DNA of 64,000 nucleotides from Nitrosopumilaceae archaeon (lineage in GTDB: Archaea > Thermoproteota > Nitrososphaeria > Nitrososphaerales > Nitrosopumilaceae): the NCBI GenBank assembly GCA_965209085.1, contig OZ242376.1, positions 192,001-256,000 on the forward strand. Direction: 5' to 3'. Positions 920 through 63,999 of the stretch are shown in pieces; position 1 is the stretch's first letter, and every line of letters starts with the position of its first letter. The notes under the pieces are model-generated. The model was not told the DNA's origin. It saw only the letters and a list, made by a program, of their open reading frames with translations, and ran no database searches. The position numbers and the translations under genes were made by a program.

Positions 920-923
920 CTCA

Positions 924-1016
924 GATCTAGATCGATAATTTACCGATCACGAATTCTACCTACCCCTCAATTCTCAATTAACGGCATCGATCAAAATCAT
1001 CTAAAAATAATTGATC
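924..1016. repeat. GATC cluster upstream of nrdJ
   Basis: GATC at 924, 930, 945, 989 and 1013, plus 1091 in codon 2. Confidence 0.7.
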
Positions 1017-1087: not shown

Positions 1088-3745
1088 GTGGATCATTCAT
1101 CAACTATTGAAGCAAATATCGCCTCTATAAAGAAAAGAAGCGGATCCATGGTCTCATTTAACCTCGAACAGGTCTCAGCTGCGATATACAAGGCTCTCTC
1201 TGCAACTGGTAAATCTAATAGAGATCTGGCAGGCGATATATCAAAAAATGTCCTAAGTGAGCTAACCGGACACGGATTCTCCTCGTCCAATCCTCCTACC
1301 GTGGAGGACATACAGGATGTGGTTGAATCCACACTAATCGATCTTGGTCACAGCGAAGCTGCAAAAGCGTTCATTCTGTACAGACACGAACGACGCAAGC
1401 TTCGTGAGGCAAAAATGAAGGTGTTAAACACTAGCACTTTGGACGCTGTGGCAAAAGCATTTGACATAAACTGCCTAAAAATTCTAGCTTCACGTTATCT
1501 ATTGCGAAACAACAAGGGCGATATAACAGAAAGTCCGGAACAAATGTTCCAACGGGTTGCCATGCTAATTACCGTGGGCGACATTTTATACGATTCGGAG
1601 ATCTTTGATGGTACAGGAAACATAGCACAGGATACTGCGGTGGCAGAATCATATTATTCAAAACTGGACAGCTTTGATTTTAAATTCAAAATTGGAGAAC
1701 ATTACCTGAACAAATACCATTTCCGTTCATTCATAGGTCATTACATAACACTTGCAAATAAAGGACACATGAAAGTGGACTTTAAACAGCTTTTGACAAT
1801 GCTGGTTGCCAAAAAATTTGATTCGTATGCGGCAAGACTGGACGAATATACAAAAATGATGACCGCGCAAAACTTTCTTCCAAACTCTCCAACAATGATG
1901 AATGCCGGCGCAAGATTGGGCCAGCTATCCGCGTGTTTTGTACTGGATATGCAAGATGACATGGCAAAAATAATGAAATCAACCACGGATGCGGCTCTAA
2001 TCTTCAAATCTGGTGGCGGTGTCGGAATAAATTACTCGTCCCTGCGGCAGGAAGGCGATATCGTAGCATCCACTTCAGGCGTAGCTTCAGGACCTGTCTC
2101 ATTCATGAACATCATAAACACCGTAACAGAGGTGGTAAAACAGGGAGGTAAGCGCCGTGGAGCAAATATGGGAATCATGGAGGTATGGCACCCTGATATT
2201 GAAAAATTCATCACACACAAGACAGAGCCGGGAAATCTTGAAAACTTTAACGTCAGTATAGGCATTTGGGAAGACTTTTGGAAGGCACTTGTTGATTCTG
2301 AAGACGGCAAATATGCTCTGCGCAACGTAAAGGACAGGTCTCCTATACGGGAGATAAACGCACACCAGTTGATGGACGTTATTGCAATGTCCGCATGGAA
2401 GAGTGGAGAACCGGGACTGATATTCCTTGATCAAATAAACAAATACAATGTATTTGCCAAAGCCCGTGGCGGCCCGATACGTGCAACAAATCCATGCGGC
2501 GAACAAAGTCTGTATCCATACGAATCCTGCAATTTGGGATCGATAAACCTTGCAAATTTGGTAAAGCGTACCGCCAATGGCCAGTATGAGTTTGATTGGC
2601 AAGGATATGAGGAACTTATCCGCAAAACTACAAGATATTTGGACAACGTTATAGACGTAAACCTTTATCCTGTTGATGAGATTGATCGCGCATCCAAAGA
2701 ATCACGACGTATAGGACTGGGAGTAATGGGAGTTGCGGATCTGTTATACAAACTGCGCATACCTTACAATTCAAAACAAGGATACGATCTCCAGTCAAAA
2801 CTTGCAGAGACACTCACATATTATTCAATGGAAGAGAGCGTGGCACTTGCAAAATCGCGCGGCGCTTTCCCGCTGTGTTCAAAGACCGAATACGCCGATG
2901 GCAAAATTCCGGTAGCTGGCTATTATGAGATTCCAAAAGATCAACACATCTATGACTGGGATGCACTGATTGCAAAAATAAAGACGCACGGAATACGCAA
3001 CGTGCTGACAACCACGGTTGCCCCAACCGGCACACTCTCCATGATAGCTGACTGTACAAACGGCATGGAGCCTACATTTGCACTGGTATTTGAAAAACGC
3101 GTGACAGTGGGACGATTTTTCTATACAAACAAAATTATCGAGCAAATGCTAAAGGACGAAAAAGTCTACAACGACGAAATTTTGGAAAAAATTGCAGACA
3201 ACTATGGATCTTTGCGCGGTATAGAAGGCGTTCCTGAATGGATGCAAAATATCTACATTACGGCAATGGATATACACTGGTCCGATCACCTGATGGCACA
3301 GGCTGTCTGGCAAAAGTGGATAGGCAACGCAATTGCAAAGACAATCAACATGCCGTACGATGCAACCACAGAAGACGTTAAAGCCGCCTATCTTTTGGCA
3401 CACGAACTTGGACTAAAGGGCATTACAGTCTACAGGGACGGTTCAAGGCACAAACAGGTACTGCACATGACCAGCGATAAAGCGAAAAAAACCTTTGATG
3501 TAAAACCCAGCAAACATGTCGTGGAATTTATCAAATCAACGATTACCAACAAGTATATTCTAAAACACGTTATTGCCGCATTAAACACCCCGATTTCAGA
3601 CGATCGTATAACCGAACATATTCCACAAACGTTGGAAGACATTCCAGAAGACTCTTTGTGTCCAACATGCAAAAGCATACTTATCTTTTCTGAAGGATGC
3701 AGCACCTGCATTGAATGCGGTCACAGCGGATGCACATCGGGCTAA
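1088..3745 (+). CDS. nrdJ: Adenosylcobalamin-dependent (class II) ribonucleotide reductase with N-terminal ATP cone
   Basis: ATP cone (IKKRSG...VEDIQDVVE), PNSPT, LSACF, TNPCGEQ catalytic motif, APTGT and C-terminal Cys pairs. Confidence 0.95.
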   Translation: MDHSSTIEANIASIKKRSGSMVSFNLEQVSAAIYKALSATGKSNRDLAGDISKNVLSELTGHGFSSSNPPTVEDIQDVVESTLIDLGHSEAAKAFILYRHERRKLREAKMKVLNTSTLDAVAKAFDINCLKILASRYLLRNNKGDITESPEQMFQRVAMLITVGDILYDSEIFDGTGNIAQDTAVAESYYSKLDSFDFKFKIGEHYLNKYHFRSFIGHYITLANKGHMKVDFKQLLTMLVAKKFDSYAARLDEYTKMMTAQNFLPNSPTMMNAGARLGQLSACFVLDMQDDMAKIMKSTTDAALIFKSGGGVGINYSSLRQEGDIVASTSGVASGPVSFMNIINTVTEVVKQGGKRRGANMGIMEVWHPDIEKFITHKTEPGNLENFNVSIGIWEDFWKALVDSEDGKYALRNVKDRSPIREINAHQLMDVIAMSAWKSGEPGLIFLDQINKYNVFAKARGGPIRATNPCGEQSLYPYESCNLGSINLANLVKRTANGQYEFDWQGYEELIRKTTRYLDNVIDVNLYPVDEIDRASKESRRIGLGVMGVADLLYKLRIPYNSKQGYDLQSKLAETLTYYSMEESVALAKSRGAFPLCSKTEYADGKIPVAGYYEIPKDQHIYDWDALIAKIKTHGIRNVLTTTVAPTGTLSMIADCTNGMEPTFALVFEKRVTVGRFFYTNKIIEQMLKDEKVYNDEILEKIADNYGSLRGIEGVPEWMQNIYITAMDIHWSDHLMAQAVWQKWIGNAIAKTINMPYDATTEDVKAAYLLAHELGLKGITVYRDGSRHKQVLHMTSDKAKKTFDVKPSKHVVEFIKSTITNKYILKHVIAALNTPISDDRITEHIPQTLEDIPEDSLCPTCKSILIFSEGCSTCIECGHSGCTSG

Positions 3746-8125: not shown

Positions 8126-8734
8126 ATGACCGATCAAGAAGGCGTACAAAAAAGTGGTCTTTCTCGGCGTGATTTCTTAAAACTGATGGGAGCTGCAGGT
8201 ACGGGTCTTGCATTTGCACCGTTTGTTCCGTGGGGAAATTTTATGCCAAATCCCTCATCTGCTTCTCTTGAACGCGTTCTAGTAGAACTTCCTGACGGCA
8301 CGAATGCAAATGTCGTAACATTTCCAACAAACCATTCAGAAGTCATAACGTATCCGAAAACCGGAGACAGGGTTCTTGACGAGGAAGCGTTTCGCAAATG
8401 GCAGTTTATCAGACTTCCCGAAGGTCTTGGAGGGGGAGAACAAAACATATCCTCGTTTAGGGCATACAGCATGATCTGTCTGCATCTTTGGTGTCTGTGG
8501 AAATACTGGCCGCAGGTTGGTAGACAGCGCGGCGAATGTCCGTGTCATGGAAGCATATACGATCCTCTTACCGGCACGGCAATAGCGGGACCTGCATCAG
8601 TGCAGGCTGCACCGTCCAACACGCTTCCAAAACTTGACTTTGAACAGGATTCAGACGGTAACATATGGATATCTCCTCCGATTTGGGGTGTAAACGATAA
8701 TGGAGTTGTAGGATTTGGCCGTTTCATTAAGTAG
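8126..8734 (+). CDS. petC: Rieske 2Fe-2S subunit of complex III with Tat signal
   Basis: SRRDFLK twin-arginine motif; CLHLWC and CPCHGS ligands. Confidence 0.95.
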   Translation: MTDQEGVQKSGLSRRDFLKLMGAAGTGLAFAPFVPWGNFMPNPSSASLERVLVELPDGTNANVVTFPTNHSEVITYPKTGDRVLDEEAFRKWQFIRLPEGLGGGEQNISSFRAYSMICLHLWCLWKYWPQVGRQRGECPCHGSIYDPLTGTAIAGPASVQAAPSNTLPKLDFEQDSDGNIWISPPIWGVNDNGVVGFGRFIK

Positions 8735-10196
8735 AAGAACCGGCGCCGTTACCTTTTTGGCGTGGATATGGGACAGTCTTGATAGAACAATATTTACCGC
8801 AATAAAATTTTCATTCCCTGCCAGATTTGTCAGTCCGTTTGGATTTCTTGGAATGCTCACGTTTATTACATTTGTAATACTGGGCATAACTGGCGCATTG
8901 CTCATGTTTTATTACGAGCCCATACTTGACAGAGCTTGGGATAGCGTCGAATTTATCAACAACGACGTGCCGTACGGATTTCACATACGCAACATACACT
9001 ATCACGGCTCAAACGCCATGGTCTTGCTTGCCATGCTGCACATGTACTATCAGTATTTCAGCGGCAGGTACAAAATACGCAATGAAATACTCTGGGTTAC
9101 AGGCGTCATACTGGGAACGGTCACCATTTTGGAGGCGTTTACCGGATACGACATCATATTCAGCGAACGGGCCGAGCTTGCCATAAGCATAGCTGCATCG
9201 CTAACCAATTCCATACCTGTGGTAGGATCCCTCATACGGGAGACCATGTTTGGGAACGGATTCCACGACTTTGTGCTGCGTTTTTACGCCCAACACGTCT
9301 TCATTTTACCCCTGGTCATGCTGGGACTAATGGCGGTACACTTTCCCAGATTCCTGGTCTTTGATGTCCCAATGGTCATGGCAATATCCGGAGCCATACT
9401 AATCACCGGCGGCGTTTTTCCAATCGATCTTGGATTCAAGTTTGAACCCACGGTGCCGCCTGGCATAACGGTTCCAGAATGGTATCTGACCGCCCTTTAC
9501 GCGTTTCTTAGAACCCAGTACGACAAGTTTGTTACCGGCGTGCTCTGGCCCGGACTGTTTATACTCTCGCTGCTTTTGGTGCCGTTTATAGACAGGTATA
9601 AAAAATTCTCGTGGAAAGACCGCCCCATAATAACATCAATTGGCATAGTCGGAATTTCGCAAATCATGGTAACCACGTACTGGGGATTTTACATACCGTC
9701 GGATACTTCGCTTGCACTTGTGGAACGGCTCGTAATCGATCCAATATTCCTGTATCTTACGATGGTGATGCTAGTACCGTTGGGATTTGGATTCAGCTAC
9801 ATGATGATACATTTGGCAAAAGAATCCGAACGCAGGGCAAAGCTTGCAAAAAAAACCGGCCCGAAAAAAATTGCTACAATAGATATTTCTGACAAATGGC
9901 TCAACTGGGTCATAATAGCGATTATCGCGTTTCTGGTATTCCTAAACATAGCTGCCTACAATGCGGCTCTGACCGGATTCAAAAACCTCTCGCTGTTTTG
10001 GACCGGACTGATACTCTTTGTGTTTGCCGCATTCTTCCATGTGTATAGATACAGCATGAGCAGGGCAAAAAACGCTCCGCCACCTGTCCCTCCGTCAATA
10101 CAGGAGAGGCCCTTTGCGGATCATCTTGACAGCAAAGAGATGCCGCAGCTTGACGATCCGGGCAAAAAATCCGACGATGAAAAACCAAAAGAATGA
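8715..10196 (+). CDS. petB: Cytochrome b subunit of complex III
   Basis: Heme ligands RNIHYHGSN...LHM and QHVF...VH, the PEWY motif and many TM helices. TTG start overlaps petC. Confidence 0.95.
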   Translation: MAVSLSRRTGAVTFLAWIWDSLDRTIFTAIKFSFPARFVSPFGFLGMLTFITFVILGITGALLMFYYEPILDRAWDSVEFINNDVPYGFHIRNIHYHGSNAMVLLAMLHMYYQYFSGRYKIRNEILWVTGVILGTVTILEAFTGYDIIFSERAELAISIAASLTNSIPVVGSLIRETMFGNGFHDFVLRFYAQHVFILPLVMLGLMAVHFPRFLVFDVPMVMAISGAILITGGVFPIDLGFKFEPTVPPGITVPEWYLTALYAFLRTQYDKFVTGVLWPGLFILSLLLVPFIDRYKKFSWKDRPIITSIGIVGISQIMVTTYWGFYIPSDTSLALVERLVIDPIFLYLTMVMLVPLGFGFSYMMIHLAKESERRAKLAKKTGPKKIATIDISDKWLNWVIIAIIAFLVFLNIAAYNAALTGFKNLSLFWTGLILFVFAAFFHVYRYSMSRAKNAPPPVPPSIQERPFADHLDSKEMPQLDDPGKKSDDEKPKE

Positions 10197-43931: not shown

Positions 43932-44165
43932 TTATTCACCAGGTGGAGGGGATATCATTATAACATTGTCTCCCCTGACTACGATGGTTCCAAGCGTTAT
44001 TGCGTTGCTTTCTCCACCCAATTCCTCAGAAGAGTCCAGTATGAGATTCATGTGCTGATCAAAGCCCATCAGCTTGCCCCGTATGGTTTTGTTGCCTTTG
44101 AGCTTTACCAAAACGATCTTGTTAATGCTCTCATCAAGTACCTTTACTGCCATATCAACGGACAT
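43932..44165 (-). CDS. Sm/LSm archaeal protein
   Basis: GKLMGFDQHMNLIL and VRGDNV motifs. Confidence 0.93.
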   Translation of the reverse strand: MSVDMAVKVLDESINKIVLVKLKGNKTIRGKLMGFDQHMNLILDSSEELGGESNAITLGTIVVRGDNVIMISPPPGE

Positions 44166-47437: not shown

Positions 47438-47700
47438 GCTTTTTTTTAAAGATTGACAGTTATAAAATTATTGTTGATCGCGTTTCTTTATCATGAATAT
47501 CGGTTATATTATTTTACATCATGTATAATTTAATATTTTGATCGATCCCATATCTTTCAATTAATTTCTTAATTTTGATGTCCAAAAACCTCTATAACTG
47601 CCAGCTCCCCAATATTTGATTTTAATATATCTGATCGCATGACACTTTGATCAATATCATAATGGATACTAACAAATTTGGCGTATATTGAGCATATGTA

Positions 47701-49104
47701 ATGGCGCGCCTCTTTGGAACAAACGGCATACGCGGTGTCTTTGGTGAAGACATGAGTCTGCAGTTTGCACACGATATTACACTCTCCTTGGCAGTACATT
47801 TTGGCAAAGGACCGGTATTGGTCGGATACGATGGACGGCATTCGGGTCCGGCTATGGCAAAAACGGTCTGCTCTTCTCTAAACTATGCCGGACTTGACTG
47901 CAGTCTTACAGGACTGGTACCTACCCCGTGTCTGGAATTTGCCGTAAAAAAACTTGGATATGCCTGGGGAATAATGATAACAGCCTCGCACAATCCCCCC
48001 GAATACAACGGCATAAAACCGGCAGGAGCAAACGGCACGGAGATATCCAGGCAGGCTGAGCTTGATGTGGAATCGATATATTTTGAGGGATCAAAACCGC
48101 CAAAACCTGCCAAATGGGGAACGACACGCAAAGAAACCGGCGCAATTGACGCATACATTAAAGGAATACTATCACACGTTGATGTAAAATCAATACAAAT
48201 GAAAAAACTCTCCATTGTACTGGACATGGGGAATGGTGCGCAAACAGTTGCTGCAAAAACTTTATGTGAAAATCTTGGCTGCAAAACTTTTGAGATAAAC
48301 GGAAACATTGACGGGGATTTTCCCGGCAGGGGACCGGAACCGACCCCTGAAAACCTTTCGGATCTTTCATCGGCCATCAAAGAGCATTCGGCCAACCTTG
48401 GAGTTGCGTTTGACGGCGACGGGGATCGCAGTATGTTTTGTGATGAGCTTGGCAACATACTCACAGGGGACAGGTCAGCGTTACTTTTTACCGAATACAT
48501 TTTGGAAAAAAACCCAGGCTCTACGGTGGTAACATGTCTCAACTCTGGCGGAGCTATTGAAGAGCTTGCATCTAGGACAAACTCAAAGATCATCCGCACA
48601 AAGGTGGGCAGCGTAGAGGTAACGCAGAGAATGCTGCAAGAGGATGCACTTGCAGGATTTGAAGAAAACGGCGGCTACATGTACGGCCCGCACAATCAGG
48701 TTCGGGATGGGGCGATGACCATGGCACTTGCCTTGGAGATGCTTGCAACAGGGACAAAGAGCATCTCGCAAAAAATACAATCACTGCCCGCATCATATAC
48801 TGGAAAACGCAAGGTTGTATGCAATGCCGAACACGTCAAGGCACTCTTGGATATCTTTGCAAAAGAATATCCTGACGCGGATACGCGTGATGGCATCAAA
48901 GTCTCCCTTGGTGGCAAAAAATGGGTCATGGTGCGTCCAAGCGGAACCGAGCCCATAGTGCGGGTTTATGCAGAAGCCTCTTCTGAGAGCGAACTTGTTG
49001 ATCTGCTCTCAAAATACGTCAGCAAAATAGAATCAACCCTAGCCGATAACACTTTTAATACCAATACAGGACAGCTTGAAGATGGAGACAATATTAACAG
49101 GTGA
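47701..49104 (+). CDS. glmM: Phosphoglucosamine mutase
   Basis: LFGTNGIRG, ITASHNP, FDGDGDR and RPSGTEP motifs. Confidence 0.88.
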   Translation: MARLFGTNGIRGVFGEDMSLQFAHDITLSLAVHFGKGPVLVGYDGRHSGPAMAKTVCSSLNYAGLDCSLTGLVPTPCLEFAVKKLGYAWGIMITASHNPPEYNGIKPAGANGTEISRQAELDVESIYFEGSKPPKPAKWGTTRKETGAIDAYIKGILSHVDVKSIQMKKLSIVLDMGNGAQTVAAKTLCENLGCKTFEINGNIDGDFPGRGPEPTPENLSDLSSAIKEHSANLGVAFDGDGDRSMFCDELGNILTGDRSALLFTEYILEKNPGSTVVTCLNSGGAIEELASRTNSKIIRTKVGSVEVTQRMLQEDALAGFEENGGYMYGPHNQVRDGAMTMALALEMLATGTKSISQKIQSLPASYTGKRKVVCNAEHVKALLDIFAKEYPDADTRDGIKVSLGGKKWVMVRPSGTEPIVRVYAEASSESELVDLLSKYVSKIESTLADNTFNTNTGQLEDGDNINR

Positions 49105-58769: not shown

Positions 58770-59309
58770 TTATTTGGCAAGATCCAGCAATCTTAAAAGC
58801 TCTACTCCTCGCGGTGCCATATTTGGATTAATTTTCCAATTGTAATCTTTTGCTTTTTCTATTATCATATCCAATGTGACGCCATCATCATCTTCTGCTG
58901 CATGATATATTTTTGCAGCGTATGATAATTCATTTATGTCGATCTTTTCGTCACAATATTCTTTACATATCTTGACAATTTTTTCTATTTTGTTGTATTC
59001 ATTTTTGTGTTTTTTAAGAATTCCATTATCAATAATTTCAATTCCATCATCTGTCAATTCATATTCATACGTAAAATAATTTCCTTCCTGCCTGATTGTT
59101 TCTTTTACAAAATCATACGCCACCAAATCCCTGAATGCCTCTCCAACATCCAAATTGTACGGTCCGTAATAATGGGAAGTAAAACTGGGCGGTTTTAACT
59201 CCTTGATCGATTTACAAGATAAATAAACAAGATTTTGTATGGTAGTTCTGCCGCGTATTTTCCCCCCATTTGCTTTTATTATCAATATTGCCATGTCCCT
59301 ATAATTCAT
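58770..59309 (-). CDS. YwgA/SocA-like winged-helix protein
   Basis: I.GRT.IQ.LVYL, F..HYYGPY and YEYELT..G motifs. Confidence 0.75.
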   Translation of the reverse strand: MNYRDMAILIIKANGGKIRGRTTIQNLVYLSCKSIKELKPPSFTSHYYGPYNLDVGEAFRDLVAYDFVKETIRQEGNYFTYEYELTDDGIEIIDNGILKKHKNEYNKIEKIVKICKEYCDEKIDINELSYAAKIYHAAEDDDGVTLDMIIEKAKDYNWKINPNMAPRGVELLRLLDLAK

Positions 59310-59388: not shown

Positions 59389-60351
59389 TTATTTTTTTGC
59401 ATTCTTGCCAAGCTCTGCAAGCATTGCTGAGAGCTGTATCTCCGGATTTGCCCCGGCAAGTATGCGATAGTCGTATTTTGCCAAAGTCTCCAAAACATTT
59501 CCATATTCATCAGCAGCTATGTCTGATTTGAATACTGATGATGCGGCATATTTTAAAAAGTCTGAAACTGATACGCCGTAAACTTTGATAATCTCGATCA
59601 TCTTTTCCCGCGCTTCTGCAGTCTTTCCTGCAAGCGCGGATTTTATCACAACATCAACATCGGACACTTTGGAGAGTCCTGCAGCTTTATTCACATTCTC
59701 AACGGTAATTTTGCCCATGCTTGAAACTGCCTGCATTATGTTTATCGCATGCCGCATGTCCCCTCCCGCATGCTCGTATAATTTCTCCAATCCTGCCTTG
59801 TCGGATTTTACTTTTTCACCCTTTGCTATGTACTCTAATCTTGCAATTGAATCATTTTTGGGAACGGCGGTAAATTTGAAAACAGCACATCTGCTCTGGA
59901 TTGGATCTATAATCTTGGAGATATTGTTTGCAATTATGATAAATCTGCAGTATCTGGCAGTATCCTCAATGATTCTTCGCAGGGCAGTCTGCGCCCCAGA
60001 GGTCATCTCGTCGGCCTCGTCAAGTATGATGATCTTGAACGGAATTTCCGTGTAAAGTCCGGCAAACCTTGAGAATTTTTTCACCCTCTCTCTGACCATG
60101 TCAATACCCCTCTCATCTGATGCGTTCAACTCTAGGGTGCTATCCTTCCATCCTGCGCCTAAAACCTGTTTTGCAATGCACAAGCTGGCCGTGGTCTTGC
60201 CCAAACCTGCGGAACCTGAAAACATCAGATGGGGCATCTGGTTGGGCTTTTTAAGCAGAGCCTCCAAGCTTCCAATTACGTCCTTTTGACCCACGATATC
60301 GGCCAGTTTCTCTGGGCGGTATTTCTCAACCCACATTTCTCCTCCAAGCAT
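59389..60351 (-). CDS. rfcS: Replication factor C small subunit
   Basis: WVEKYRP, GSAGLGKT, ELNASDERG, LDEAD and SRC motifs. Confidence 0.96.
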   Translation of the reverse strand: MLGGEMWVEKYRPEKLADIVGQKDVIGSLEALLKKPNQMPHLMFSGSAGLGKTTASLCIAKQVLGAGWKDSTLELNASDERGIDMVRERVKKFSRFAGLYTEIPFKIIILDEADEMTSGAQTALRRIIEDTARYCRFIIIANNISKIIDPIQSRCAVFKFTAVPKNDSIARLEYIAKGEKVKSDKAGLEKLYEHAGGDMRHAINIMQAVSSMGKITVENVNKAAGLSKVSDVDVVIKSALAGKTAEAREKMIEIIKVYGVSVSDFLKYAASSVFKSDIAADEYGNVLETLAKYDYRILAGANPEIQLSAMLAELGKNAKK

Positions 60352-60388
60352 ATGTGTGCGTATTCTTGTCCCTAAATATATCACATTA

Positions 60389-60472
60389 GATCGCTAGATC
60401 AAATGATCAACGCATTTTGTTAGATTATTTCATAGATCCGTTGTATAAGGATCCTCGCTGATCCGATCGATC
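60389..60472. promoter_or_regulatory. GATC-dense divergent promoter between rfcS and GINS-mcm
   Basis: GATC at 60389, 60397, 60405, 60435, 60450, 60460, 60465 and 60469, around the TATA-like TTGTATAA at 60441. Confidence 0.75.
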
Positions 60473-60473
60473 C

Positions 60474-60992
60474 ATGCCTACCATTGGAGATGTACAGCAA
60501 ATCTATGCCGCCGGTTTTAATCTAGAGGACGTAAAGATTACCCTCGAGCACGACCTAAAGATAGATGTTGGAGGAATTAAAATTGATGCTAGAGTGGGGG
60601 AAATAATTGACATACCGCGCTGGGCCGCTATAATTTTGGAAAATGAAAAACACTGCACCCTACAGGAGACAAATATGATAGCAGAGCTAACACAGGCGCT
60701 TGGAAAAGAAAAAGGGTTAGACGAATACGAACTTGCAACGTTAGAGGATGGATTTTACATTAAACTAAACGCGTACATTGAAAGACTCGAAAAGGACGAA
60801 CAAAAAGAGGCAAAAGATATGCTAAATACACTCTTCCGCAGAAGACATGTAAAACTGATCCGTCTAGCAGGCTCTTCCCCGCTTACGGCCGATCTTTCAA
60901 AACGCATGACAGTAGAGGAAAAATTATACCATGATAAAATTCACTTTGAGAGCAAAAACTTTACCGGTCGTATAATGGACGATCAAAAATGA
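60474..60992 (+). CDS. GINS subunit (Gins23 type)
   Basis: IPRWAA..L, L...FY and RR..KL..LA...MT.EE motifs; immediately upstream of mcm. Confidence 0.85.
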   Translation: MPTIGDVQQIYAAGFNLEDVKITLEHDLKIDVGGIKIDARVGEIIDIPRWAAIILENEKHCTLQETNMIAELTQALGKEKGLDEYELATLEDGFYIKLNAYIERLEKDEQKEAKDMLNTLFRRRHVKLIRLAGSSPLTADLSKRMTVEEKLYHDKIHFESKNFTGRIMDDQK

Positions 60993-61080: not shown

Positions 61081-63168
61081 ATGGCATCAGTTGAAGTTGT
61101 CACAATGACAGAGTCAGCATTAGCTCAGCATGTAAAAGATTTTATCACAGGATTCCGCAAAAACGGCCAGTACACGTACGTTGAGAGAATAGATGCAATG
61201 ATGCCAAAGAGGCTAAAGGCGGCGGTCATCGATTACAACGATCTGGTAACGTATCCGATGTTTGATTCGATGGTTAATGAAAATCCTGACCGCATACTGC
61301 GGGCATTTTCTGAAGCGATTGGGGAAATTTTGAGCGAGCGGTTTCCAGATTATGCCATAAAGATCAAAGATGAGGTACGCGCCAGAATTGTAAACTATCC
61401 GATACAACGAAGCCTAAGGGACATCAACGCGGAGATTATCAACAAAATGACCAGTGTCTCAGGCATGGTGGTCCGGGCCTCGGAGGTAAAACCGCTGGCA
61501 AAGGAGCTGAGCTACACTTGTCCCGAAGGTCACACTACGGTGGTGACACTTAACCGCGGCATGAGTATAAAATCACCCCTGCGGTGTTCAACTCCAAAAT
61601 GCCAGCATAAAGAGCTGGAAGTGGAGCCTGAATCCAGCAAGTTTATCGATTTTCAAATATTGCGTATACAAGAGCTCCCCGAAGATCTGCCGCCAGGACA
61701 GCTTCCGCATTATGTTGACGTTACAGCAAAACAGGATCTAGTTGATAGTGCGCGCCCGGGCGATCGCATAGTGCTTACCGGCGTGGTCCGCATAGAGCAG
61801 GAACCGATTGCAGGAGTGATGCGGGCAAACAGTGCACTGTACCGTCTCCGTCTTGAGGGGAATAACGTGGAATTTTTGGGCGGTCACGGTGCAAAAAGAT
61901 CCAGAAGAACAGAACGTGAAGAGGTTACAGCAGATGAAGAAAAACAGATAAGATCTCTCTCGCAAAACCCGGACATTTACACGCGCCTGATTGATTCTTT
62001 TGCACCGCATATACGCGGACAAGAGCTGATTAAAGAGGCAATAATGCTGCTTATCGTAGGCTCTACGCAGAACATACTGCCGGATGGGACAAAAAACAGG
62101 GGCGACATTAACGTATTTCTTGTAGGAGATCCGGGTACTGCAAAATCAGAGATGCTAAAGTTTTGTGCAAGAATAGCGCCGCGCGGACTGTACACGTCCG
62201 GAAGAGGCTCCACTGCGGCGGGTCTGACAGCTGCGGTGGTGCGCGACAAGTCTGGAATAATGATGTTAGAAGCTGGAGCTGTGGTTTTGGGCGATCAGGG
62301 TCTTGTATGCATAGACGAGTTTGATAAAATGAAGCCTGAAGATCGGAGCGCACTGCACGAGGTCATGGAGCAACAGTCCGCAAGCATAGCCAAAGGGGGA
62401 ATTGTGGCCACACTGAACGCTAGAACCTCAATTTTGGCCGCGGCAAATCCGATATTTGGAAAATACGATCCGTACAAAAATATCTCTGAAAACATAAATC
62501 TGCCAATACCCCTGCTGACCCGTTTTGACCTGATATTCGTGGTGCGCGACAAACCCTCAAAAGAAAAAGACCGCAACATTGCAACGCACATTATAGAGCG
62601 CAACACCCGCGCGACACAACAAGGACCGTCAATCATCGACATTGATATGCTGACAAAATACCTCACTTTTGCGAAAAAAGGCAAGCCAACATTGATGCCA
62701 GGGGCCAAAAAAATGATAATAGACTATTACCTAAAGATGCGCAACGTGGAGGATGAGGATATGATTACAGTCACCCCACGCCAGCTTGAAGGCTTGGTGC
62801 GTCTTGCAACGGCTCGCTCCAGGATACTTTTGAAAACCCAAATCGACGAGGAGGATGCAGAGCGGGCAATATACCTGATTGAAAACATGCTGCACGATGT
62901 CGGAGTTGACGTAAACACGGGCAAGGTGGATCCGGGAGTATTGCATGGAAAACCGCGTAGCGAGATGTCTAGAATGCAGGCCTTTATGGACATGATAAAG
63001 GCACTGGAAGGCATTCCAAGACAGCCTGTTCCAGAGGATGCACTGCTTGATGATCTTGAAAAATCAGGCAAATTTACCCGTGAGGCTGCCCGCATCTTTA
63101 TAGAAAAAATGCTGGCCGAGTCTGTAATATTCGAATCAAGACCGGGACACTATAACACGGTAAATTAG
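61081..63168 (+). CDS. mcm: MCM replicative helicase
   Basis: GDPGTAKS, CIDEFDKM, AAANP, LTRFDL and TPRQLE motifs; zinc finger. Confidence 0.97.
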   Translation: MASVEVVTMTESALAQHVKDFITGFRKNGQYTYVERIDAMMPKRLKAAVIDYNDLVTYPMFDSMVNENPDRILRAFSEAIGEILSERFPDYAIKIKDEVRARIVNYPIQRSLRDINAEIINKMTSVSGMVVRASEVKPLAKELSYTCPEGHTTVVTLNRGMSIKSPLRCSTPKCQHKELEVEPESSKFIDFQILRIQELPEDLPPGQLPHYVDVTAKQDLVDSARPGDRIVLTGVVRIEQEPIAGVMRANSALYRLRLEGNNVEFLGGHGAKRSRRTEREEVTADEEKQIRSLSQNPDIYTRLIDSFAPHIRGQELIKEAIMLLIVGSTQNILPDGTKNRGDINVFLVGDPGTAKSEMLKFCARIAPRGLYTSGRGSTAAGLTAAVVRDKSGIMMLEAGAVVLGDQGLVCIDEFDKMKPEDRSALHEVMEQQSASIAKGGIVATLNARTSILAAANPIFGKYDPYKNISENINLPIPLLTRFDLIFVVRDKPSKEKDRNIATHIIERNTRATQQGPSIIDIDMLTKYLTFAKKGKPTLMPGAKKMIIDYYLKMRNVEDEDMITVTPRQLEGLVRLATARSRILLKTQIDEEDAERAIYLIENMLHDVGVDVNTGKVDPGVLHGKPRSEMSRMQAFMDMIKALEGIPRQPVPEDALLDDLEKSGKFTREAARIFIEKMLAESVIFESRPGHYNTVN

Positions 63169-63441: not shown

Positions 63442-63999
63442 TCATGCGGTAGGATCTGAGATTCTGCCCATAAAGAGTATGATATTGGTCTCATCATCCC
63501 AAATTGCGAATATAAATGGATGATCCGCCCGGAATGTGATTATATCTATATAATCTGTATCAGTCTCGCTAGTGATGCCAACAGTCATTGATGTTACAGC
63601 TGCAGCTTCGGTTCCTATTTCATTTACATTCACAAATGCTCTATGAGTAATGTCACCAATATGCAAACTAGTCGCGGTTTCGTGCGTTATGCCTGTTAAA
63701 TCCGCAATGCTGGGATCAAACGCATCATGTATTCCAAGATTTTTAAATGCGGATATTGTCGTCTTGTCGCCATATTTGGTATTTATTTCGAATTTTGGAA
63801 TATACATCTGTACAATATGGGGTTTTGTGTTTCCAATCCATTCTGTAAACATATCATATGTCAGATTATTCTTCAAGTGTCCTAAACCGTCCCTGTCTTC
63901 TGGCAGTGCTATTATCATTGATAGGCGGTTTGAATCAGATTTATATGGAATTTTTAATATCTGCACGCCGTCTATTTTTGCATAATGTATTTGGTTAAC
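63442..63999 (-). CDS. Serpin (C-terminal part; 5' end lies outside the window)
   Basis: SMIIALP, IPKF, hinge EIGTEAAAVT and signature FRADHPFIFAI...ILFMGRI.DP. Confidence 0.95.
   Translation of the reverse strand, partial: VNQIHYAKIDGVQILKIPYKSDSNRLSMIIALPEDRDGLGHLKNNLTYDMFTEWIGNTKPHIVQMYIPKFEINTKYGDKTTISAFKNLGIHDAFDPSIADLTGITHETATSLHIGDITHRAFVNVNEIGTEAAAVTSMTVGITSETDTDYIDIITFRADHPFIFAIWDDETNIILFMGRISDPTA

Follow-up and report, generated by a model that had tools for sequence, protein, structure and literature searches.

A conserved GATC module of the divergent rfcS and gins-mcm promoters in Nitrosopumilaceae and its counterparts beside the replication origin

We looked at the short spacer between rfcS and gins-mcm, two divergent sets of replication genes, in the genome of a Nitrosopumilaceae archaeon. 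This genome consists of one contig (OZ242376.1; 1,693,554 bp, 41% G+C), and the window, that is the whole stretch of 64,000 nucleotides that was analysed, corresponds to genome positions 192001-256000. An original prediction, made from the letters of the window, saw in the eight GATC tetranucleotides of this spacer a candidate methylation-gated replication switch. We found that the divergent rfcS and gins-mcm promoters have a conserved and essentially single-copy control module, of which the eight GATC form the repeated word. The same positional grammar recurs at the two promoters that flank the probable replication origin, and we are confident that the spacer is a cis-regulatory module of rfcS and/or gins-mcm whose mechanism is common with these origin-flanking promoters. 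The best reading of that mechanism, which we put forward tentatively, is a promoter operator in which Dam-methylated GATC would be the recognised word, possibly in a manner sensitive to its methylation state.

The GATC cluster between rfcS and gins-mcm

GATC starts were read at window positions 60389, 60397, 60405, 60435, 60450, 60460, 60465 and 60469, which places eight sites in 84 bp, within the 89-bp spacer, and the first three (60389, 60397 and 60405) at an exact spacing of 8 bp, as originally described. The background that had been expected, one GATC per 250-300 bp, was of the right order and slightly low: the window holds 340 GATC (1 per 188 bp; dinucleotide shuffles gave 250 +/- 14, with 0/100 reaching 340), and the genome holds 7381 (1 per 229 bp). 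With an observed/expected ratio of 0.88 under a second-order Markov model, the word is neither avoided nor favoured overall. When the whole genome was scanned with an 85-bp sliding window, the maximum of 8 GATC was detected only at rfcS and gins, and the runner-up value, 5, at five other places. Random placement of 7381 sites produced at least 8 within 85 bp in 2/3000 trials, and a Poisson scan gave about 1e-3 genome-wide. These results bear out the claim that the cluster is exceptional, and show that GATC is not equally dense in other intergenic regions. Similarly, among 1463 crude gene starts (-100..+5), 8 GATC were present only at rfcS and gins; six others have 4, four of which are copies of an insertion sequence (IS).

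The features of the spacer and of the genes around it are the following (window coordinates).

59389..60351, minus strand: rfcS, coding sequence of the RFC small subunit (Pfam Rep_fac_C, AAA, DNA_pol3_delta2)
60373..60381, minus strand: rfcS TATA box, reverse complement ATATATTTA, from the sequence and conserved in the spacer alignment
60389..60392, unstranded: GATC-1, an extra site of this genus only (this genome and its congener G001), at -41 from the rfcS ATG
60397..60408, unstranded: box A, GATCAAATGATC, which contains GATC-2 and GATC-3; invariant alignment columns
60417..60424, plus strand: box B, TTGTTAGA (family consensus TTGTTAAC), TATA-like, from the alignment
60435..60438, unstranded: GATC-4, the remnant of box C, here ATAGATCC (family consensus GATCGATC), at -39 from the gins ATG
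60441..60449, plus strand: TATA-like box TTGTATAAG, at -33..-25 of the gins ATG, which matches the genome-wide TATA peak position
60450..60453, unstranded: GATC-5, directly 3' of the TATA-like box, at -24 from the gins ATG
60460..60472, unstranded: GATC-6, GATC-7 and GATC-8 (GATCCGATCGATC), at -14, -9 and -5 from the gins ATG
60474..60992, plus strand: gins, Sld5-domain GINS subunit (Pfam PF05916)
61081..63168, plus strand: mcm (Pfam MCM, MCM_OB, MCM_lid, MCM_N), downstream of gins on the same strand

The Pfam assignments agree with the earlier statement that core replisome genes lie on both sides, and gins orthologues were found in 40/41 relatives. The start of rfcS is probably the ATG at 60351 (MLGGE-MWVEKYRP), the longest open reading frame (ORF) extending to a GTG at 60384 (59389-60384); the M-x4-MWVE start and a TATA at -31..-24 are kept in relatives, which carry GATTTATTAG on the minus strand where this genome has its rfcS TATA. 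Box A, with the family consensus GATCAAWTGATC and the palindromic core TCAATTGA, occupies -46..-57 relative to the rfcS ATG (-44..-60 in the comparison of conserved rfcS starts) and -77..-66 relative to the gins ATG. This places it just upstream of the predicted TFB recognition element (BRE) and TATA box of rfcS, and one to four bare GATCs lie between the presumed TATA region and the gins start. A profile running from box A to box C, searched against the genome, matched solely the rfcS and gins spacer (E 8.7e-8; next best E about 1).

Over the whole genome, TATA-like words are most frequent at -30..-25 from the ATG, so that most genes look leaderless, and GGTG/GGAG is found at about -12 in a minority of genes. 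In the genus studied here, TTGTATAAG would thus yield a predicted leaderless gins transcript. In most other genera the stretch at -33..-25 of gins is a poor TATA, and the predicted TATA TTGTTAAC would instead give a gins leader of ~30 nt with GGAG or GTGATC. Box B may be a TATA box, as the same TGTTAAC stands at -29 in the promoter of a 129-aa gene beside the origin (see below). GATC at -25..-28 of gins was also found in several genera, and start-codon-proximal GATC at -6..-16 in many, with varying flanks and at other positions in G001. The spacer matched no known RNA family. Altogether, it has the predicted anatomy of an archaeal TBP/TFB promoter with operator boxes, with TATA boxes ~25-30 nt upstream and conserved boxes abutting BRE/TATA.

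The GATCs next to the start codon might also be translation signals, GTGATC serving as an extended Shine-Dalgarno sequence. The 3' end of the 16S rRNA (...GGATCACCTCCT) contains GATC, and in several relatives GGAG or GTGATC precedes the gins start by 7-19 nt. However, no genome-wide GATC peak was detected upstream of ATGs, most genes look leaderless, and boxes A and C as well as the -42 and -70 sites described below would be left unexplained. We therefore consider this explanation, which accounts for only part of the cluster, very unlikely.

Other places with dense GATC were looked at in the same genome. Three of the five other windows with 5 GATC (44061, 753382 and 1621333) are ends of a multi-copy IS66-family element. 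The terminal ~60 bp of this element hold the palindrome GATCATATGATC and two further GATC just upstream of the start of the transposase (467 aa, DDE_Tnp_IS66 and zf-IS66 domains), a layout that resembles the Dam-controlled transposase promoters of bacteria. The genome has 10 ends bearing GATCATATGATC, at the following genome positions outside the window.

8716-8757, 44061-44107, 470756-470797, 753382-753423 and 811936-811977: IS66 ends
846576-846617, 1311756-1311787, 1621367-1621408, 1626756-1626797 and 1681356-1681397: IS66 ends, continued

A second scan covered intergenic GATC triplets with gaps of at most 16 bp, full IS66 copies excluded. Among replication and repair loci it returned rfcS and gins (8 GATC), radA with a Schlafen-like helicase (4) and the region upstream of ribonucleotide reductase (RNR; 3). 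Mobile or defence genes were represented by an MT-A70 methyltransferase/HTH_Tnp pair (4), a DDE transposase/GmrSD pair (3) and an IS110 transposase/TPR pair (3). The remaining hits were an IS66 remnant before a H+-pyrophosphatase gene (3), a pair formed by an adenylate-cyclase-domain gene and an unknown ORF (4), and one pair of unknown ORFs (3). The other dense spots were rejected as equivalents of the module, being IS66-family ends or adjoining mobile or defence genes.

A few features of the window stand apart from the module. A box C-like word, TTTTGATCGATCC, is present at window 47536-47547; the spacer that contains it precedes a gene of the phosphoglucomutase/phosphomannomutase family (window 47701-49104). 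Downstream of rfcS, a 179-aa ORF without Pfam family (window 58770-59309, minus strand) shows weak NCBIfam similarity, far under the cut-offs, to the DarG antitoxin and to AcrIF11-type ADP-ribosyl enzymes. The end of the window (63442-63999, minus strand) holds a fragment of a serpin gene (Pfam Serpin, E 6.8e-44).

Conservation of the module and the origin-flanking promoters

For spacer and promoter comparisons we used 25 genus representatives of the family, and composite patterns were searched in 201 family genomes (27 genera), of which G092, G107 and G108 are flagged as unpublished. Other families of the same order served as the outside comparison (five rfcS/gins loci, and 16 genomes for PF02086), and each motif read backwards was the control of its pattern search. 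The rfcS and gins-mcm gene order is retained in 21/25 family loci examined. The spacer contains 3-8 GATC in 20/25 genus representatives and 0-2 in the other five; the five loci from other families have 0, 1, 0, 0 and 2 GATC in -300..+30. Over the 25 family spacers (2914 bp in total), GATC was the most enriched canonical 4-mer, with 112 observed vs 14.4 expected from the flanks (7.8-fold), an enrichment that is not an independent-sample statistic since the sequences are related.

The alignment revealed a common architecture: the rfcS TATA GATTTATTAG, box A GATCAAWTGATC, exactly 22 nt holding TTGTTAAC, box C GATCGATC, and then 1-3 GATC before the gins start. The composite pattern GATCAAWTGATC-N20-28-GATC was detected in 156/201 family genomes (22/27 genera), usually once per genome, and the reversed control gave 1 match; when G092, G107 and G108, which all match, are left out, the count is 153/198. 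This composite element sits between rfcS and gins in 29/30 loci checked. The conservation in relatives that the original prediction presupposed is thus present in most of the family.

Lineages modified this architecture in different ways. In the genus studied here, an extra GATC was gained upstream of box A and half of box C was lost. In the congener G001, -300..+30 likewise contains 8 GATC, with the start-codon-proximal sites placed elsewhere, and the positions of the start-codon GATC gains differ both between the congeners and from those of other genera. In genus g17 the rfcS-gins adjacency is kept and box A is half-degenerate. The metagenome-derived genome G068 carries a second copy of box A, N22 and box C between amoA and the gene of a Dam-family methyltransferase, ~145 nt upstream of the latter; this copy (L186, G068:C24, locus 1500-1541) overlaps the start of a 77-aa ORF. 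At another locus (L210, G078:C112), a 12-nt unit, CATATCATGCCA-like, is repeated in tandem and lengthens the rfcS-gins spacer to ~360 bp.

We then considered the replication origin. The single orc1/cdc6 gene (genome 84257-85474, minus strand) adjoins a 505-bp oriC-like region (85475-85979), which has two direct and one inverted repeats of the origin recognition box (ORB) type and an AT-rich stretch, and which lies between orc1/cdc6 and a 129-aa gene. The cdc6 promoter of this genome carries GATC at -69, -42 and -8 (3 in 70 bp), a cluster at the promoter of the initiator gene as in Dam/SeqA-type systems. In 12/25 genera, a GATC-rich spacer of ~110 nt separates the last ORB from the cdc6 ATG (3-6 GATC in 130 bp), and 11 of these 12 promoters have GATC at -68/-70, -41/-43 and -8/-10, often with another at -18/-20. 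The ORB of the other 13 genera borders directly on the cdc6 start codon, and 0-1 GATC is found there. The pattern GATC-N5-TGT-N15-GATC-NNTTSAA matched 44/201 genomes (12/27 genera; none of G092, G107 and G108) with 0 control matches, and in 12/12 loci checked it was located just upstream of cdc6.

The 129-aa gene occupies the opposite origin flank from cdc6 (genome 85980-86369, plus strand). It is present in 23/25 family loci, the other two holding <200 nt of flank, and in 4 loci outside the family. GATC at ~-40 and ~-7 was found in its promoter in 16/23 family loci, including nine genera without GATC in the cdc6 promoter; TGTTAAC occupies the TATA position, and the -8 GATC has no conserved flanks. 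The protein belongs to no Pfam family. Its model has a mean predicted local distance difference test score (pLDDT) of 77 and weak best Foldseek matches (E 0.008 or worse); the matches listed are dominated by winged-helix regulators (ArsR/SmtB, Fur, MarR and RosR types), which weakly suggests a conserved winged-helix protein of no known family.

The -42 boxes of both origin-flanking promoters share the consensus GGATC..TTsAA.TGT(T/A)AA and resemble box A (GATCAATTGATC; core TCAATTGA). An 18-nt extension, GATCNNTTSAANTGTWAA, matched 34/61 family genomes (37 matches, about once per genome; 1 control match), and the match adjoins cdc6 wherever cdc6 coordinates are known. In this genome, only 5/1462 starts have GATC in both -47..-38 and -12..-5, namely those of cdc6, the 129-aa gene, gins and two metabolic genes, and a further GATC at -73..-66 leaves only cdc6 and gins. 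These promoters share a grammar in which a GATC box at ~-42 abuts the predicted BRE, the TATA is of TGTTAAC type and a bare GATC follows at ~-8, with an extra GATC at ~-70 in cdc6 and gins. The original prediction is supported in this respect, a second replication locus, the two origin-flanking promoters, using the same positions.

Since the spacer adjoins replication genes, as archaeal origins often do, it could be thought of as a second origin or an Orc1-binding ORB array. However, its 89 bp contain neither an ORB repeat nor an AT-rich unwinding element, and the classical oriC-like region lies 167 kb away, beside the single orc1/cdc6. We rejected this explanation, which is highly improbable. 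The cumulative GC skew of the genome was uninformative for origin location.

A solitary Dam-family methyltransferase

The presence of a GATC methyltransferase was decisive for the original prediction, and such an enzyme is encoded. One PF02086 gene was found (METHYLTRANSFERASE; genome 1637988-1638845, minus strand), which encodes a 285-aa protein with the FxGxG and DPPY motifs of the Dam-family D12 class (PF02086 193.8 bits; TIGR00571 'dam' 275.5 bits vs a cut-off of 114.85). Among solved structures, DpnM (2dpm, E 1.2e-60) is nearest to it and Escherichia coli Dam comes second. PF02086 matches are present in 25/25 family genomes vs 2/16 genomes of other families of the order, and the DPPY catalytic motif is intact in 21/21 orthologues examined. 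With DpnM as its nearest solved relative, and with homologues in relatives assigned GATC N6-methyladenine (m6A) in print, the enzyme is predicted to be GATC-specific.

No cognate restriction enzyme was detected in this genome, where the DpnII family gave no match and DpnI only sub-threshold matches, other nuclease families not having been searched; the neighbours of Dam are amoA and a 128-aa protein. The Dam gene lies directly beside amoA in this genome (amoA-Dam stretch 1637988-1639699, L001) and in 19/20 loci of relatives (L147-L166), within a conserved block of highly conserved genes. Its promoter has one conserved GATC (TTGTgatcTTTTGTTG) ~12 nt downstream of a TATA-like TTAAAAAATA in 12/22 loci examined, AATC at the same place in 5/22 and other arrangements in 5/22.

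The 128-aa protein (genome 1637285-1637671, plus strand; L001:741-1127) occurs in 25/25 family genomes with 45-91% identity, and its gene is convergent with Dam in most genera. It has a ribbon-helix-helix-like N-terminus and a CxxCx4CxH motif. No Pfam or NCBIfam family was assigned, and the monomer model (pLDDT 76) gave no fold match; Atlas gives a weak ribbon-helix-helix lead, and a 63%-identical homologue is present in G027, a genome outside the family that has no PF02086 match. As a candidate reader of the GATC sites, this protein is a weak lead.

The original prediction invoked GATC methylation in Nitrosopumilaceae, and published work on relatives agrees with it. A Nitrosoarchaeum metagenome-assembled genome (MAG) is described with m6A at 9446/9618 GATC sites (98.2%) and m4C at 96.0% of AGCT, with matching methyltransferase genes (PMC6329791); for Ca. 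Nitrosomarinus catalina a review gives >99% of GATC methylated and lists M.Nca01II and M.NspBD3II as GATC m6A enzymes (PMC11033074); and in marine archaeal MAGs GATC was modified at 19-99%, with two exceptions (PMC8919816). The family-wide Dam and the ~98-99% m6A at GATC in relatives suggest that the spacer GATCs would be methylated in vivo and hemimethylated at fork passage. Concerning AGCT, the second methylated motif reported in relatives, this genome has two PF01555 methyltransferase genes. Among its 4-bp palindromes, CTAG and AGCT exceed expectation (observed/expected 1.87 and 1.41, second-order Markov), and GGCC falls below it (0.64).

The reader known from Escherichia coli, SeqA, was looked for with PF03925, which gave no match at E<=1 in this genome, in agreement with the original assumption that archaea lack it. 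A Dam-related role other than transcription can be considered at this point, in which the cluster would be a binding or sequestration site for chromosome organisation, handling of the replication fork or MCM, or strand discrimination in repair, and would lie in this spacer by chance. GATC density is itself conserved, the second locus abuts oriC, and in most complete relatives 160-450 kb separate the gins locus from cdc6, all of which would suit such a role. Against it, GATC positions are fixed relative to the TATA boxes and start codons of four genes, which points to promoters, and no SeqA partner was found in this genome, MutH not having been searched. We regard a non-transcriptional role as improbable.

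Readings of the module and its significance

The conserved flanks and the fixed 22-nt spacer suggest that a sequence-specific protein would bind the module. GATC itself appears to be under selection, since it stands in four different flank contexts within one spacer, since the bare GATCs between TATA and start codon have variable flanks and were moved or gained independently by lineage, and since the genus studied here has independent gains of its own. It is on these grounds that an operator with Dam-methylated GATC as the recognised word is the reading that we favour, with reserve. That the read-out of the module would depend on methylation state is about as uncertain, falling a little short of an even call.

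The main rival is an ordinary operator or activator site, blind to methylation, where a dimeric or tetrameric factor would bind the -42 boxes as well as the palindromes (core TCAATTGA; GATCGATC), GATC being just a part of its motif. Several observations fit it, and some of them weigh against the reading that we favour. Flanks and spacers other than GATC do not vary (AAWT within box A; exactly 22 nt from box A to box C), and in box A and the -42 boxes conservation extends to the letters around GATC (TCAATTGA; GATCNNTTSAANTGTWAA, the 18-nt extension found about once per genome), as at ordinary transcription-factor sites. The box centres are ~32 bp apart, or three helical turns, which is typical of cooperative factor binding. 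G005 retains the box flanks although its GATCs decayed, and G027, without PF02086 match, has 4 GATC in the promoter of the 129-aa gene. Moreover, the putative winged-helix protein encoded at oriC behind the same promoter type would suit autoregulation. Against a methylation-blind site stand the varied contexts and the mobility of GATC given above, and also the level of methylation in relatives, at which a major-groove reader would meet m6A on both strands, making full indifference less likely. We take this rival to be possible rather than probable.

Further points weigh against an operator read through Dam-methylated GATC. Five of the 25 genera are without the gins element and still have intact Dam; decay of Dam was looked for in these genera and was not seen, DPPY being intact. 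Known families of m6A or GATC readers were looked for in this genome and gave no match. SeqA uses same-face spacing, unlike the 8- and 4-bp spacings of the module. In addition, other replication genes do not follow the grammar. In the region -130..+5 of gene starts that are crude, the promoters of PCNA, PolB, PriS, PolD-L, PolD-S, RFC-L and Fen1 hold 0-1 GATC. At radA, the 4 GATC of this genome compare with 0-2 in the 22 other family loci and with none in the congener, and no cluster is conserved at the RNR promoter, where loci hold 0-5 GATC per 176 bp (0-4 in relatives). A general replisome regulon was rejected in view of these near-empty promoters and non-conserved clusters, and so the idea that GATC peaks mark replication or division promoters at large did not hold. 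These results indicate that the GATC grammar is specific to rfcS and gins-mcm and to the origin-flanking pair.

Two of these promoters have elements of their own. At radA (L117-L139; genome 345967-346010), a palindrome GTACCGTAC..GTACGGTA is conserved across the family between TATA and ATG and appears to be a separate operator. Upstream of RNR (window 1088-3745), the 168-bp spacer contains 5 GATC at window 920-1016, three of them within 25 bp (924-945); the RNR spacers of relatives share another element, ..ATGA.TTCATAGTA.CGGTGT.., and in the gene that precedes the spacer, helix-turn-helix, ATP-cone and NrdD-like domains are fused.

If the favoured operator were read through its methylation, the mechanism could be the following. 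At the promoters of orc1/cdc6, the winged-helix gene, GINS-MCM and RFC-S, the GATCs at ~-70, ~-42 and ~-8 would be maintained in the fully methylated state by the family-wide solitary Dam. A sequence-specific factor, for which the oriC-flanking winged-helix protein or a TFB paralogue would be candidates, and/or the TBP/TFB pre-initiation complex would read the GATC boxes by methylation state. Fork passage would leave these promoters hemimethylated, and a reader unrelated to SeqA would switch them once per replication round, so that initiator, clamp loader and GINS-MCM helicase would be expressed in a manner coupled to replication. That the module is such a replication-coupled, once-per-cycle switch is in our opinion unlikely. 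It is equally doubtful that it constitutes the first epigenetic cell-cycle circuit in Archaea, standing in for the cyclin and cyclin-dependent kinase (CDK) logic that these organisms lack.

Known systems offer partial parallels. In Escherichia coli, Dam and SeqA bring about sequestration of oriC and of the dnaA promoter. The archaeal arrangement resembles this system in its clusters of Dam words at the initiator promoter beside the origin and at further replication genes, in its solitary Dam and, by logic only, in that fork passage would hemimethylate the promoter; it differs in that no SeqA homologue was found, in its TBP/TFB type of promoter, and in GATC spacings of 8 and 4 bp within palindromes that have conserved flanks. 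In Caulobacter, CcrM methylation words in cell-cycle promoters are read by GcrA jointly with the transcription apparatus, the distance from the origin determining the timing. Methylation words at fixed promoter positions of cell-cycle or replication genes are common to both, whereas the word is GANTC there and the methyltransferase class differs. Dam-sensitive promoters and phase switches of bacteria, such as those of the IS10 transposase, pap/Lrp and agn43/OxyR, likewise have GATC inside core promoter elements or factor sites, and the IS66 element of this genome has four GATC per terminal 60 bp; unlike these single loci, the module is family-wide in archaea and serves core replication genes. 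The eukaryotic G1/S regulons (MBF/MCB, E2F) target CDC6/ORC1, MCM, GINS and RFC. This set overlaps with the archaeal one, without homology of sequence or factor, and PCNA, polymerases and RNR are outside the archaeal set. Finally, in the related archaeal lineage Sulfolobales, short conserved aCcr1 boxes, 2-3 per cell-cycle promoter, and TFB2, a paralogue of a basal factor, act at promoters of cell-cycle genes; motif, targets (division genes there) and lineage differ, and the excerpt available of that preprint describes no link to DNA methylation (10.64898/2026.09.06.749720).

The question addressed here is how the expression of replication-initiation genes is timed in archaea without cyclins or CDKs. 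The word methylation is absent from the 2024 review 'The Archaeal Cell Cycle', and in the abstract of another article the regulatory role of DNA methylation in Archaea is called largely uncharacterised (PMC5809426). A full-text literature search, whose scope did not include the Ahlgren 2017 methylome paper, returned no description of the rfcS and gins element. The conserved GATC promoters are accompanied by a universally retained solitary Dam, usually beside amoA, and they offer a narrow and concrete target: three promoters and a handful of GATC at fixed positions, conserved in abundant and globally important ammonia oxidisers. The idea can be put to a direct test with cultures and long-read data that already exist. 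In these organisms, the module may link replication-gene expression to DNA methylation.

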